A DNA stretch of 64,000 nt from an uncultured Solirubrobacterales bacterium (GCA_963763985.1 CAVXQO010000025.1:15660-79659); one strand, 5' to 3'; shown: positions 39,118-54,190, counted from the stretch's first letter. Made by a program: numbers and translations. The notes: generated from the sequence alone by a model not told the origin.

Positions 39118-39159
39118 TAGCGGGGGCGGGATTCGAACCCGCGATTTTCGGGTTATGAG
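39118..39159 (-). repeat. tRNA-fMet 3'-half fragment, copy 1 (2 mismatches)
   Basis: The reverse complement reads CTCATAACCCGAAAATCGCGGGTTCGAATCCCGCCCCCGCTA. There is no D-arm or 5' acceptor strand upstream. Confidence 0.8.
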
Positions 39160-39256
39160 ATGCCTCTGGGCCGTTTCCTCCGGCGCCCTCAGGCGAGGCT
39201 ATGCAACGTGAGACGAGCTGAGATCAGTTGAGTTTCGGACCCCTCGGGTTCAGGCC

Positions 39257-39475
39257 TCAAGAACTGCCCGCGTCGTACTTGAACGAGACCCCGAGCCGGA
39301 TGCGGAACTCGGAGACCTTTCCGCTGTCGATCGTCACGTCCTGGCGAACGACCTCGGCGATCCGCAGGTCGCGCACAGTCTCGCTGACCTTCTCAACGGC
39401 GTTCTTCGTCGCCTGCTCCCACGAATCGGAGCTGACGCCGACCACTTCGGTGACTCGATAGACGCTGTCTGCCAT
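39257..39475 (-). CDS. Dodecin-family flavin-binding protein
   Basis: 72-aa ORF: VYRVTEVVGVSSDSWEQATKNAVEKVSETVRDLRIAEVV..FRIRLGVSFKY. Confidence 0.8.
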   Translation of the reverse strand: MADSVYRVTEVVGVSSDSWEQATKNAVEKVSETVRDLRIAEVVRQDVTIDSGKVSEFRIRLGVSFKYDAGSS

Positions 39476-39548
39476 TTCTCTCCTTTGGTAGGGCTGCGTC
39501 AGACAGCCTCACACTTCCGGCCGCCTTCATGCTGCCCGAGGGACTCGT

Positions 39549-40730
39549 CTAGCCGAGCCTCAACTTGACCTTCCGGCCCGGCGTCCGCACGGTGCCGGGC
39601 TTCAGGCTCTGATTCGTGACCGTCTTGCCGTTGCCCCTGATCCTTCCGAGGCGGCAATGTGAATGCCTCAGACGGCGCGCGGCGGCCTTGCGGCGGATGC
39701 CCTTCAGCTCGGGCACGACGCAGGCGATGAATCTGGCGGCGATGGTCGTCGGGGCGTTCATCGCAGCCGTGCAGGTCGGCATGCGGTCACACCCGGGCGC
39801 GGTCCAACCGGTGAACCGGGCAGGACTGAGCGCCGTCGCCGTGAGCGTCACGTCAGTGCCGTTGACGTAGTCCGCCCTGCAGCTCTTGCCGCACCTGATA
39901 CCGAGAGGTGCACTTGTCACGACACCCCGTCCGTTTCCCCGCTTGCCGACGGTCAGGGTGTGGCGTCCGAGGGCTTCGGCGGCGTTGACGACGAGCGCAC
40001 CGAAGTTGCCCCTCCAGGCGGACGAGCCGTAGTGGTCGCCGACATAGGCGTTGAGGCCCACGGCGCGGCCCTTGACGGCCACCGCCGGTGTGCCATCGGT
40101 CCATCTGGCGATCTCCCTGGCGCCCCCGGCCAGTGACACTGAGTCGCGGTAGTAGGCCGACAGGGGACTTCCCCCCTCATCGTCCTGGAAGCTCGGGATC
40201 CCGGACAGAAGGGGGCTGGCCGAGTCCTGCCAGCCCACGGTGTCGTACGCGAAGGCCGTGCTGGAGCCGACTGCGTAGGGCGAATAGCCGGCCGAAATCC
40301 AGCGGCCGAAGAGCCTGCCGCCCGCGCCCGCCCGCCAGTCAGCACCCGCTGCGACGACGACGCCTCCTCCGTCCTGGAAGTCGGCGAGGTTGTCGCCCAT
40401 CGCCACAGGTGCAAGCCAGCTGCAGTCTCCGATCGCCACGACTACGTCGTAGGAGCTGAGCTGCGCAACGCTGGCAGTCGCGGCGGCCCCGTCGAACAGC
40501 TGGACTGTGGCTCCTGACTTCCCGATGATCTGATCGCGCAAGGTGGCCGCCGGTGTGCTCGGGTTGCACAGCGCCTCGACGATCATGGCCCTCAGGGCGT
40601 TCGGGCTGGCTGGCGCCGGGGCAGGGCCGGCGAGGAACGCGATGCTCGCCGCCACGAGGACGAGCAAAGCCCGCGATACGCGGGTTGAGGCTCGCGCCCG
40701 CTGGTGACTCATAGCGTGGATTGTCACCAA
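39549..40730 (-). CDS. Secreted protein with InlB-B-repeat-like and C-terminal PASTA-like domains
   Basis: Signal peptide ..LVLVAASIAFLAGPAPAPA. Further motifs: LTVGKRGNGRGVVTSAP..GIRCG..C and CVVPELKGIRRKAAARRL..VTNQSLKPGT. Confidence 0.6.
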   Translation of the reverse strand: MVTIHAMSHQRARASTRVSRALLVLVAASIAFLAGPAPAPASPNALRAMIVEALCNPSTPAATLRDQIIGKSGATVQLFDGAAATASVAQLSSYDVVVAIGDCSWLAPVAMGDNLADFQDGGGVVVAAGADWRAGAGGRLFGRWISAGYSPYAVGSSTAFAYDTVGWQDSASPLLSGIPSFQDDEGGSPLSAYYRDSVSLAGGAREIARWTDGTPAVAVKGRAVGLNAYVGDHYGSSAWRGNFGALVVNAAEALGRHTLTVGKRGNGRGVVTSAPLGIRCGKSCRADYVNGTDVTLTATALSPARFTGWTAPGCDRMPTCTAAMNAPTTIAARFIACVVPELKGIRRKAAARRLRHSHCRLGRIRGNGKTVTNQSLKPGTVRTPGRKVKLRLG

Positions 40731-40757
40731 AGAGAAAGGGCCGCGTCAGCGGCCCGC

Positions 40758-40985
40758 TCAGTGATGGTTGGCGCCCTCATGCTTGGCGATGCATTTCTTG
40801 CGCTTCTTCTTGTTTTTGATCTGCCGGCACTTGTCGTCGGCTCGGGAGCTCGCCTTCGCGCCGACTCCATGGTTCGCCTGGCTGGCTGCGACCCCTGCGG
40901 GCGCCAGCGCTGAGCCGAGCACCGCCGCCGACAGCAGGGCGGCCGCCAGCCGCGAGATGCGTTTGCTGTGGATTCTGGTTTACAT
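40758..40985 (-). CDS. Candidate small Lys-rich secreted peptide; ATG is followed by an in-frame TAA
   Basis: GAGGAGG lies 9 nt upstream of ATG-TAA. The frame then reads TRIHSKRISRLAAALLSAAVLGSALAPAGVAASQANHG..CRQIKNKKKRKKCIAKHEGANHH-stop (hand translation). Confidence 0.3.
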
Positions 40986-41073
40986 GCCACGCATCCTCCT
41001 CGTCGCGGGTTAGGGCTTGGCCAAACAAGCGTTAGGCCTTCGAATGAGCGGAGTGCGTCAGGCTGAACGCCCG

Positions 41074-52215: not shown

Positions 52216-52220
52216 GTGAG

Positions 52221-52262
52221 TAGCGGGGGCGGGATTCGAACCCGCGACCTTCGGGTTATGAG
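52221..52262 (-). repeat. tRNA-fMet 3'-half fragment, copy 3
   Basis: The reverse complement reads CTCATAACCCGAAGGTCGCGGGTTCGAATCCCGCCCCCGCTA. It is identical to copy 4. Confidence 0.85.
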
Positions 52263-52369
52263 ATGCCTTGAAGTCGTTCGGTGGGCTGATCCTGAACGAC
52301 GCGAGGCACGCTGAGAGGGGCTGACATCAGCTGAGGTTCTGTCAGTTCGGTACCACCGTTGGTACCACC
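52263..52369 (-). repeat. Conserved 107-nt module 5' of fragment copy 3 (homologous to 54191..54297)
   Basis: A gap-free hand alignment gives 81 of 107 identical positions. GGTACCAC occurs twice, 12 nt apart, starting exactly 87 nt from the fragment in both copies. Confidence 0.6.
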
Positions 52370-54095
52370 ATCGTGGTGGTCACCGGCCGATGGCGCCGAC
52401 GGGCTTCTCCGGTGGACGGCCGCGCGGATGCAGCCCGGTCGGCTGCGAACAGGCTGTGGAGGAGCTGGATGGCGACTGAGCCCTCTCCAACCGCAGACGC
52501 CACACGCTTCACGGAGCCGTGTCGAACGTCGCCGGCGGCAAGGACGCCAGGCATGCTCGTCTCGAGCAGAAACGGACTGCGCTCGAGCGGCCAAGCACGG
52601 TCGCCGCGAAGATCGGTCCCCGTGAGGACAAAGCCCTGCCCATCTCTATCGACCTCCGGTGGCAGCCACTCGGTGTGCGGGCGAGCTCCGATCATGAGGA
52701 AGAGCACATCGGCTTCGACGGTCTCCTCGCTTCCCGGGCGGCGATCGCGAAGCACGAGGTGCTCCAGCCACCCGTCGCCCCCACCGCCGACGATGTCGGT
52801 CCCGAGACGGACCTGCAGCTTCGGCTTCGCCTTCACCTGGCGAACCAGGTAATGCGACATCCCAGCGCCGAGTGACTGAGCACGTACCACGAGCGTGACC
52901 CGCCGCGCGTAACGGGCGAGGTGCAGCGCAGCCTGTCCGCCGAGTTCGCGCCCCCGAGGACGTAGACGTCGCGACCGGCCATGGCGGGCGCGGCGGAAGC
53001 CGCGCCGCCGTAGAAGACGCCGGCGCCGTTCAGAGCCTCGAGCGCCGGGATGCCGAGTCGGCGATAACTGGCACCCGTCGCCAGGAGCACCGCGCGGGCA
53101 CGCACGCGGCCGAAGTCGGAGAGGGTGACGGAGAGCCCGTCGTGCTCGCGCCGAAGGTCGGTCACTTTCTGCATGAACACGAAGTTCGGCCCCGAAGACC
53201 CACGCCTGCTCGTACGCCTGCTGAGCCAGGCGGCGACCGCTGACCCCTCGGGGGAAGCCGAGGTAGTTGCGAATCAGCGAACTGGAGGTCGCCTGGCCCC
53301 CACCCCGCCTTCGTCGACGACCAGGGTGCTGAATCCTTCCGAGGCGCCATACACGGCTGCCGACAGACCAGCCGGTCCCGCGCCGACGATCACAAGGTCG
53401 AAATCCATCCGCTCCGGGTTCACCGGTGAGCCCGACGCCCTCGCAATATCGGCGTTGCTGGGGTTCCTCAGGACCGTTCCGTCGGGAAATGCGACGAGGG
53501 GGAGCTTTGCCCCCTCCCCGCCTCGGAGACGAGCGCGCGCCCGTCCTCGGAGTCGGCCAAACAGAACGAGTGCGGGATCGCACAGCGCTCGAAGCAGGTC
53601 CCTGAGCTCAAAGGCCCTGCCAGACCAAGACTCGCCGACCATGTAGATCGTGTTCGGCGAGGTCTGCTGCGCCTCTGCCCATTCGAGCAGCAAGCTCGAG
53701 ATGGCCTGATGAAAGAGCTCGTCCGGTGTCGAGGATGGCCTGACCACATAGCCGTCGATGCGACCGCGGGCGATCGAATCGAAGATCGCCTCACCGGTCG
53801 CTGGGTCGCCCCAGTCACCCCAGCCGAGCAGCAGCACGCGCTTTGCGTGCGGATGCAGGTGACGGGCCTCATTCAACAGCTCGCTTCCGGTGGTCCCGGT
53901 GAGCCGCTGCCCGGCCAGAACCACGGCGACTTCGTCACCGGCGGCGGCAAGGTCCGCCAGACGGGCGCGAGCCTCCTCCGCCGACCGCATGCAGACGACG
54001 CGGTAATGGCGCGCGTAGCGGTCGCACAGCTCCCTTTCGATGTCCCGCAGTGCGTCCGCATCGTCCTCAACGGCGACAAGCACGGGTTCGGGCAT
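52342..54095 (-). CDS. Receiver-like domain, thioredoxin-like linker and thioredoxin-reductase-like FAD/NAD(P) oxidoreductase; frame broken at least 4 times
   Basis: MPEPVLVAVEDD.. (REC-like), FDLVIVGAGPAGLSAAVY (FAD site), VYVLGGANSAGQAALHLA (NAD(P) site), GVLAAGDVRHGS. The pieces lie in ORFs 53274.., 53468.., 52833.. and 52342... Confidence 0.75.
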
Positions 54096-54116
54096 TTGTG
54101 GCGCGCACTCTAAACA

Positions 54117-54143
54117 CCAAGGGCCCTCTTTCGAGGGCCCTTG
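54117..54143. terminator. Hairpin CCAAGGGCCCTC-tttc-GAGGGCCCTTG next to tRNA-fragment copy 4
   Basis: The arms are almost the same as at 46399. The flanking acaccaaggg and tgagtagcggggg are also shared with copy 2. Confidence 0.55.
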
Positions 54144-54148
54144 ATGAG

Positions 54149-54190
54149 TAGCGGGGGCGGGATTCGAACCCGCGACCTTCGGGTTATGAG
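54149..54190 (-). repeat. tRNA-fMet 3'-half fragment, copy 4
   Basis: Identical 42 nt to copy 3. The upstream sequence (UCGGG GCUU CUCAUAA) does not restore a canonical anticodon arm or D-arm. Confidence 0.85.

Follow-up and report, generated by a model that had tools for sequence, protein, structure and literature searches.

The right-hand part of the 64,000-nt stretch analysed here (the window; GCA_963763985.1 CAVXQO010000025.1:15660-79659), which comes from a Solirubrobacterales bacterium, is divided by four partial copies of the initiator tRNA gene, tRNA-fMet. With a probability of about 0.85, the DNA between 39.1 kb and the end of the window is a tandem array formed by integration at tRNA-fMet. 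The copies belong to a conserved unit of ~190 nt, which consists of a 105-nt arm, the tRNA segment 32-73 and a G+C-rich terminator hairpin, and which recurs beside unrelated genes in soil metagenomes. The balance of the evidence leans towards the modules of the array being non-autonomous and served by a recombinase that is encoded elsewhere.

Structure of the attachment units

The 42-mer CTCATAACCCGAAGGTCGCGGGTTCGAATCCCGCCCCCGCTA, which represents the core of the unit and reaches from the anticodon loop through the discriminator of tRNA-fMet (positions 32-73, every copy beginning at C32), is found on the minus strand of the 64-kb window with 0 mismatches at 52221-52262 and 54149-54190. At 39118-39159 it occurs on the same strand with 2 mismatches, which change GG of the variable loop to AA (AAGGTCG to AAAATCG), and none of 100 shuffled controls gave a match. 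The 22-mer of the T-arm and acceptor strand occurs four times in the window, the additional occurrence being 46432-46453; this copy reaches 46460, and its 29 nt comprise the variable loop, T-arm and acceptor strand only. All four copies lie on the minus strand. These positions and sequences agree exactly with the first-pass annotation, which had been made from the DNA alone and had described four co-oriented half-copies of an initiator-type tRNA with no intact gene. ARAGORN indeed detected 0 tRNA genes over the whole window, the cloverleaf is complete in no copy, and a comparison of the 38.8-55.4 kb region with Rfam gave no match, tRNA included. The initiator identity was confirmed on the intact genes of two related contigs, L071 and L103 (L numbers denote the compared loci), which read CGCGGGG...GGGCTCATAACCC...CCCCGCTA and show the C1xU72 mismatch, three anticodon-stem G-C pairs and the CAT anticodon. 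The 3' half of both genes is identical to the core of the rightmost unit of the window.

The repeat goes past the tRNA part, a feature that had been missed before: positions 52207-52368 and 54135-54296 are related over 162 nt at 83%. The four units are called U1 to U4 from left to right (Table 1). About 105 nt common to the copies at 54149 and 52221 form the arm, which in the window units lies on the tRNA-5' side (at higher coordinates) and carries a pair of GGTACC boxes 12 nt apart as well as a maximum of five CTSAG boxes at 10-nt spacing. The arm of U4 also includes an imperfect inverted repeat of the anticodon stem (TCGGGG) and can be aligned with 37 other units (alignment A2). On the tRNA-3' side, all copies are followed by a G+C-rich hairpin and then a T run. 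The hairpin of U4 is the beginning of the next, older module; its type (type 1) also trails the intact tRNA-fMet of L071 and L103, with compensatory changes. The type-3 hairpin of U3 is likewise present 3' of units in L075, L094, L107 and L108, and the type-2 flank of U1 is present 3' of cores in L034 (98.5%) and L106. The arm of U1, which is joined to the 3' end of a dodecin gene, retains 75% identity to U4 over 120 nt.

The right-hand units U4 and U3 are intact, U2 is truncated, and U1 has lost the distal arm and carries 2 substitutions. Decay that rises leftward from U4 and U3 to U2 and U1 indicates an age gradient, and the tRNA is therefore expected on the right. Together with the minus-strand orientation of the tRNA, the order of an arm (newer module), a displaced host half-tRNA and the start of an older module gives the layout of stacked integrations. 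The earlier proposal that the copies are 3' tRNA halves displaced by site-specific integration at tRNA-fMet in a one-way stack is thus upheld, with the arm 5' and the terminator 3' of each. Both decayed copies (39118-39159 and 46432-46460) read AAATCG where the tRNA itself has AGGTCG, which suggests that one decayed copy may derive from the other or that a mutated core was perhaps already present on an incoming module.

A second junction type, GGTAGCGAGAGACGAATCGGGCCCCCGCTA followed by the type-1 terminator, has ~19 nt in common with the tRNA 3' end and contains GGTAGCG, pairable with CGCTAC(T). Some other family of elements may use it as its att site, or it may be a tRNA copy with an internal deletion.

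The unit family in soil metagenomes

Units were located with a search pattern anchored on segments of both the arm and the core, and the first GGTACC box was left out of it. Matches were obtained in 43 soil-metagenome contigs, and 45 distinct units, including those of the window and its relatives, were collected. The first GGTACC box is exact in 36 of the 45, at a constant distance of 12 nt before the second box. CTCAG/CTGAG pentamers stand at offsets 6/16/26/36/45-46, one helical turn apart, and the arm-to-core spacing is 83-84 nt in 39/45 units, the middle of the arm being variable. Conservation ends sharply 2-4 nt beyond the first GGTACC box, and everything outside the arm is unrelated. In L089, L091 and L104 a hairpin, CTGCTTTCCATGCAAAGCAG, lies 25-45 nt upstream of the arm, approximately where L089 and L090 diverge from each other.

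In most units, the anticodon stem is repeated in inverted and imperfect form directly ahead of the core (e.g. CTTCAGGG...CCCGAAGG, flanking CTTCTCATAA), an arrangement that looks like the core-type site of a tyrosine integrase. Variants of the T-arm are paired across both strands (GCGGG/CCCGC, GCAGG/CCTGC and GTGGG/CCCAC), as would be expected if each host's resident tRNA supplied the displaced half. RNAalifold predicted no consensus fold over the units besides the T-arm, which makes DNA that binds protein a better reading of the arm than RNA; since Rfam gave no match either, an RNA-gene reading of the unit was rejected. GGTACC units on any one contig share one direction, the sole exception being an inverted bare core without that arm in L074. 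Neither terminal inverted repeats nor short target duplications were seen in the units.

Intact tRNA-fMet genes and complete modules

The attachment-site model was borne out in related contigs, where an intact tRNA-fMet lies 1.8-5 kb upstream of the unit and is directly repeated in it. In L103, one oxidoreductase gene stands between the intact tRNA-fMet with its type-1 terminator and a co-oriented unit 1.8 kb away; the 1.7 kb upstream of the tRNA encode a CAP-domain protein and Ppx/GppA. In L071, 5 kb with a LuxR-STAND regulator separate the intact gene from the co-oriented unit. Between the terminator of the tRNA and that of the unit, the differences are compensatory (CCGAGGGCCC...GGGCCCTCGG versus CCAAGGGCCC...GGGCCCTTGG); the hairpin has therefore been kept functional, and each module supplies the terminator for the rebuilt tRNA.

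Tandem co-oriented units were found in L015 (three), L081 (two, 640 nt apart) and L084 (two). About 11 complete modules, each lying between two cores or between the tRNA and a core, are available: three in the window, two in L015, and those of L081, L084, L012, L071, L103 and the L093/L104 overlap. They are 0.64-7.3 kb long and often hold one gene, and cargo genes occur on both strands. The smallest of them, in L081 (145-893 in unit orientation), consists of a lone SnoaL-like open reading frame (ORF) between two complete units. In a separate observation, L067 (IMG/VR, 1-5380) contains a prophage end (large terminase, portal and protease-capsid fusion) directly downstream of a tRNA-fMet with an identical 3' half; phages thus use this tRNA too.

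Search for integrases

The modules of the window contain no integrase, excisionase, transfer or phage gene according to Pfam and PHROGs searches of the array ORFs, and a six-frame scan of the window for the integrase catalytic motif found none. With two actinobacterial integrases as queries, phmmer and tblastn searches of all loci revealed no integrase attributable to the GGTACC units. The ~11 complete modules contain 0 integrases or integrase remnants. Among the 45 distinct units, with a visible flank of at least 1.5 kb upstream for 25 and downstream for 20, no integrase or remnant of one could be assigned to the GGTACC arm. When 366 ORFs around the units were clustered in search of a hidden recombinase, only cargo families and pseudo-ORFs reading through the unit were obtained. 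In the first-pass annotation, the lack of an integrase had been presented as an oddity of the locus; the absence is real, but it is general to the whole unit family and not peculiar to the locus. The GGTACC arm itself was not recovered from mobile-element collections either: 15-mer matches in IMG/VR were at chance level, and PLSDB and INPHARED matched the tRNA part alone.

One autonomous element occupies the same tRNA-fMet core. In L096/L112, a 12.6-kb element between two cores encodes an HTH_17 excisionase-like gene and a 388-aa integrase with Arm-DNA-bind_4, SAM-like and catalytic domains. This xis-int element has TGTCAAACG direct repeats on both arms, and in L116 both TGTCAAACG arms surround one core, which would represent either attP or a tandem junction. 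Its integrase family has >7000 matches below 1e-40 in soil data. The sampling was therefore able to see autonomous elements at this core, and the GGTACC units are consistently non-autonomous. The L096 integrase was considered as the cognate enzyme of the GGTACC units and was not an obvious match, because its own element has TGTCAAACG arms and not GGTACC.

Gene content and left border of the array

Table 1. Positions of the attachment units, modules and related features (window coordinates unless a locus is named).
Feature	Position	Strand	Description
U4 P-type arm	54191..54295	-	two GGTACC, CTGAG/CTCAG boxes 10 nt apart, variable segment
U4 core	54149..54190	-	tRNA-fMet 32-73, 0 mismatches
U4 type-1 terminator hairpin	54112..54148	-	CAAGGGCCCTC-GAAA-GAGGGCCCTTG then T run
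U3 P-type arm	52263..52367	-	two GGTACC and CTSAG boxes
U3 core	52221..52262	-	tRNA-fMet 3' half, 0 mismatches
U3 type-3 terminator hairpin	52184..52220	-	GAAAGGCCCGG-AGAT-CCGGGCCTTTC then T run
U2 truncated core	46432..46460	-	no GGTACC arm; GGTAGCGA in 5' flank, as in second junction type
U2 type-1 terminator hairpin	46396..46431	-	95% identity to U4 hairpin (46396-46458 vs 54114-54175)
U1 decayed arm	39160..39236	-	proximal 77 nt (CCGAAACTCAACTGATCTCAGC...) kept; both GGTACC boxes gone
U1 core	39118..39159	-	2 substitutions; most distant from presumed tRNA
Type-2 downstream arm and terminator	39065..39117	-	TGTCTCTCAGTACCACCAGCG AGCCCTCC-TCCG-GGAGGGCT TTTC
Module A	39237..46395		dodecin, InlB-repeat/PASTA, GDPD, alpha/beta hydrolase, patatin, class-III aminotransferase, 1 unknown protein
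Module B	46461..52183		SnoaL-like, M19 dipeptidase, metallophosphoesterase, 574-aa putative ATPase, 140-aa protein
Module C	52368..54111		sole FAD/NAD(P) oxidoreductase, two reading frames
Module D, right end open	54296..64000		NTF2-like 54404-54793 (+), unknown 54826-55341 (+), TcA 55362 to >64000 (-)
Conserved four-gene block	34260..38878		SDR gene and CarH-like MerR/B12 regulator at its end; left border of array
Second junction type	L007 5835-5892, 19105-19163; L034 5805-5864, 19878-19975 (-); L008 10940-11001; window 46461-46520
xis-int element arms	L112 5259-5430, 17812-17930; L116 2289-2546

The genes of the window were called by G+C content at the third codon position and annotated with Pfam and PHROGs. 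An integrase-sized ORF of 393 aa beside the first copy (39549-40730) was examined as a candidate integrase and rejected, as Pfam and PHROGs identified an InlB-repeat/PASTA protein. The dodecin-like gene (39272-39478, minus strand) ends in L004 and L012 with the codons KE*, which have become AGSS* at the fusion to the U1 arm. The oxidoreductase of module C (52342-54218, minus strand) has its Rossmann N-terminus in one frame and the remainder in another, which is due either to a pseudogene or to a long-read indel error. Foreign origin had earlier been argued from base composition, and the hand counts on which this relied are right for the lines concerned (0.483 at 46501 and 0.80 at 10921); however, only the TcA module is clearly off the background, with a G+C content of 0.629 in module D, 0.67-0.69 in modules A-C and 0.695-0.704 in the background. 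The TcA ORF runs past the window end, and its best homologue, which is 76% identical and located in L111, begins ~625 nt further upstream. That contig carries TcB/TcC fragments over ~7 kb upstream of TcA, together with tRNA-Gly and tRNA-Pro, and no tRNA-fMet was found there upstream of the TcA homologue. The Tc locus may accordingly occupy different tRNA sites in different genomes. The sole Rfam match in the window is a c-di-AMP riboswitch (RF00379) at 29331-29473 on the plus strand, with 67 bits against a gathering threshold of 38.

The CarH-like gene left of the array was used as a query and retrieved 43 loci, nearly all from Solirubrobacterales metagenome-assembled genomes, so that the host is a Solirubrobacterales bacterium. 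A myxobacterial source, at which the CarH-like gene and the Tc toxin had initially hinted, was rejected in view of these Solirubrobacterales relatives. The four-gene block to which this gene belongs is syntenic in ~20 Solirubrobacterales genomes, and its flanks are variable in all of them. It is 93-95% identical at the nucleotide level to the closest relatives, L002 and L003, and the similarity stops at 38847/38878; outside the block, the DNA of the window differs wholly from both relatives on both sides. No clean empty site was present in L002 or L003, where unrelated DNA lies to the right of the block. The left edge of the block is occupied by tRNA-Pro in L002, tRNA-Arg in L009, an elongator tRNA-Met in L014 and a short tRNA-fMet 3' fragment in L007 and L034, and by a hairpin only in the window (~34231-34259, type-1-terminator-like). 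In L003 an intact tyrosine integrase gene (13239-14512) lies 3.5 kb right of the CarH-like gene, its ORF extending into the 3' end of a convergent tRNA-Asp; another tRNA hotspot thus holds the same chromosomal neighbourhood in this closest relative.

Fragments of tRNA-fMet were also found near the block in relatives: two in L012, three tandem units with single genes between them in L015, and the shorter junction type in L007, L034 and L008. The cargo of these arrays is shared in part. The patatin of the window is 96.9% identical to that of L012 at the amino-acid level and 95.7% at the nucleotide level, as against 60-76% for the core genes and ~70% for the core block. Homologues of module B genes (74-88% aa) adjoin a tRNA-fMet junction in L008, and the aminotransferase has 86% aa identity to a gene beside a unit in L077. 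In these instances, cargo has moved horizontally between genomes.

Formation of the array and alternative explanations

Tyrosine-integrase-type recombination in the anticodon loop of tRNA-fMet would build such a tandem array. At each insertion the incoming copy would rebuild the tRNA and the previous 3' half would be shifted inward; the displaced half-copies would become the module boundaries, the oldest of them being furthest from the tRNA, and the intact gene would lie to the right of the window. The terminator of the unit would keep the rebuilt tRNA gene properly terminated. In this mechanism the modules would be neither decayed phages nor elements of the pSAM2 type, but a family of non-autonomous cargo whose sole mobility feature is the ~190-nt unit, with an arm that is probably still functional. 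Another part of the genome, or a helper element, would have to encode the recombinase and any arm-reading directionality factor.

The modules may also be leftovers of autonomous elements (pSAM2-like, prophage or tycheposon-like) from which deletions took the mobility genes, the GGTACC arm being conserved since the parent family is young and widespread. This explanation, which is judged unlikely, draws on integrase C-terminal fragments 1-1.5 kb downstream of units in L105 and L074, a pseudogenised integrase in L009, the intact xis-int element inside one array and the decay of the older window units. It also has a parallel in tycheposon islands, where partial tRNAs between tandem elements, fragmented integrases and mostly non-element DNA have been described (10.1101/2020.12.28.424599). 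The integrase remnants that were seen, however, go with other arms: the fragment of L105 is followed by a different arm and another core, and the xis-int element has its TGTCAAACG repeats. The distal GGTACC box has stayed intact in most units while the DNA outside is unrelated, an outcome that neutral decay is unlikely to yield, and no parent element with this arm is present in IMG/VR, PLSDB or INPHARED. Service in trans is therefore favoured, because the distal arm is kept, the outside is unrelated and no integrase in cis was found in 45 cases.

Several observations weigh against this preference and against integration as the only process at work. The fragments of L105 and L074 show that decay of autonomous elements also occurs in these arrays. 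A recombinase matching the GGTACC arm was found nowhere in the loci and databases searched, so that action in trans is argued from an absence; moreover, most contigs are short (1-13 kb), and an integrase lying further off would escape notice. The intact tRNA-fMet of this genome was not found within the window, which ends inside the TcA gene. The NTF2-like gene and U4 recur in L075 (78% over 684 nt), where the neighbours on either side are different, and this shared segment has no core at its left limit. L089 and L090 diverge ~43 nt outside the arm and not in the core. In L004 the dodecin gene directly adjoins the CarH-like gene with no tRNA piece between them, so that module A may in part be old chromosomal DNA and not an import. 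Taken together, the L075 segment, the L089/L090 breakpoint and the L004 dodecin gene indicate that rearrangements other than core recombination also shape the arrays.

Two explanations would dispense with integration altogether. That the unit is a small dispersed repeat, whether tRNA-derived or of the miniature inverted-repeat transposable element or repetitive extragenic palindromic kind, or a structured RNA gene, is very improbable. Its length of ~190 nt, sharp outer edge, high conservation and terminator end would suit such a repeat, and its distribution was followed over the window and the contigs. Nevertheless, the GGTACC units are co-oriented on each contig apart from the bare core in L074, they are direct repeats of an upstream intact tRNA-fMet in L071 and L103, and they lack both the terminal inverted repeats and the short target duplications. 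The CTSAG boxes, which occur in either orientation with 10-nt phasing, fit protein-DNA binding and not an RNA helix, in line with the RNAalifold and Rfam results. It is scarcely credible that duplication of several tRNA-fMet genes, or homologous recombination among them, left the copies behind as pseudogene debris, with no mobile DNA involved. Several tRNA-fMet genes per genome are often found in bacteria, and in L007 and L034 fragments flank the four-gene block on both sides, both of which would accord with debris. Against it, all copies begin at C32 and are without the 5' half, every copy is joined to a non-tRNA arm conserved across genera, and the DNA between the copies is unrelated, horizontally shared cargo.

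Comparison with known integration systems

In pSAM2 and other actinomycete integrative and conjugative elements (AICEs), the att identity segment covers that part of a tRNA gene which begins with the anticodon loop and includes the 3' end. The analogy with these elements, drawn in the first-pass annotation, holds for the att geometry, but int, xis, rep and FtsK/SpoIIIE-type tra genes are absent from the modules (Pfam and PHROGs). The geometry is matched by tRNA- and tmRNA-targeted islands of the anticodon-loop class, which use tyrosine integrases and likewise have a direct repeat from the anticodon loop to the 3' end (Williams 2002; Islander, PMC4383910). In such Islander-type islands the target gene is restored by the copy that arrives, an imperfect inverted core site is provided by the anticodon stem, the distance between arm-type repeats and core is ~90-105 nt, and elements are stacked in tandem (PMC4383910), as they are here. 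In contrast to them, no module of the present array has an integrase, the modules measure only 0.64-7.3 kb, and a discrete 190-nt unit stands beside unrelated cargo.

Cis-mobilizable elements (CIMEs) of Streptococcus are flanked by att sites, lack recombination and transfer genes, accrete in tandem with autonomous elements at the same site and are moved by the integrase of another element (PMC5704250; ICEberg 2.0, PMC6323972). The modules A-C of the window and those of L015, L081, L084, L071 and L103 are similarly att-flanked without such genes. The att sites of CIMEs match a known partner, an integrative and conjugative element, whereas here the only autonomous element found at the same core has TGTCAAACG arms and no partner with GGTACC arms is present in IMG/VR, PLSDB or INPHARED; the host phylum and the target gene differ as well. 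Tycheposon islands of Prochlorococcus have partial tRNAs between tandem elements, with older partial tRNAs further inward, and consist mostly of cargo (10.1101/2020.12.28.424599). The flanking partial tRNAs and the island anatomy are thus alike, but tycheposons are defined by an integrase, which is a tyrosine or large serine recombinase, and a replication module, both absent here, and the partial tRNAs of the present arrays carry a conserved arm.

Integron cassettes are also short, often one-gene units with a conserved recombination site at the end, which stack in one direction at one docking site and have no recombinase inside. In an integron, the first cassette adjoins an intI gene with attI and a Pc promoter, attC is an imperfect palindrome with a hairpin fold, and the cassettes have no promoters and share one orientation. 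In contrast to integrons, no intI-like gene was seen by the docking site in L103, whose sequence covers 1.7 kb upstream of the tRNA, RNAalifold gave no attC-type hairpin fold, and the cargo genes point in both directions, for which own promoters are needed. It remains a tentative and rather doubtful idea that soil Solirubrobacterales have an integron-like system of chromosomal cassette capture, unrelated to IntI, in which tRNA-fMet would be the docking site, the unit would act as attC, a dedicated recombinase would be encoded outside the array and small modules, many of them with one gene, would be inserted, excised and swapped between species; it would be a cassette system of Actinomycetota. 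Repeated insertion at one small-RNA gene, with direct repeats of its 3' end, is shared with the Dehalococcoides ssrA islands (PMC3146451), and dependence of cargo units on a recombinase encoded elsewhere is shared with the integrative mobile elements exploiting Xer (IMEX) and pdif modules, which use the host XerCD. Both groups differ in their targets and recombinase families, and no dif-like site is present in the core of the units described here.

Biological significance

Genomic islands with stacked partial tRNAs are a familiar sight, and such stacks are usually read as the wreckage of integrase-bearing elements. The present case differs from the known systems in that the 190-nt unit is discrete and conserved, the modules are very small and no partner with matching arms was found. 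The unit is spread worldwide in soil Actinomycetota. If the units are relics, the array would be an ordinary but clean case of island accretion at tRNA-fMet. If they are active, they would form a class of minimal cargo modules served in trans, which would help to explain the exchange of single accessory genes, such as those for patatin, NTF2/SnoaL-like proteins, oxidoreductases and Tc toxins, in uncultured soil actinobacteria. Activity of the units would also point to an undiscovered integrase with a defined 190-nt substrate, which may be of use as a tool.

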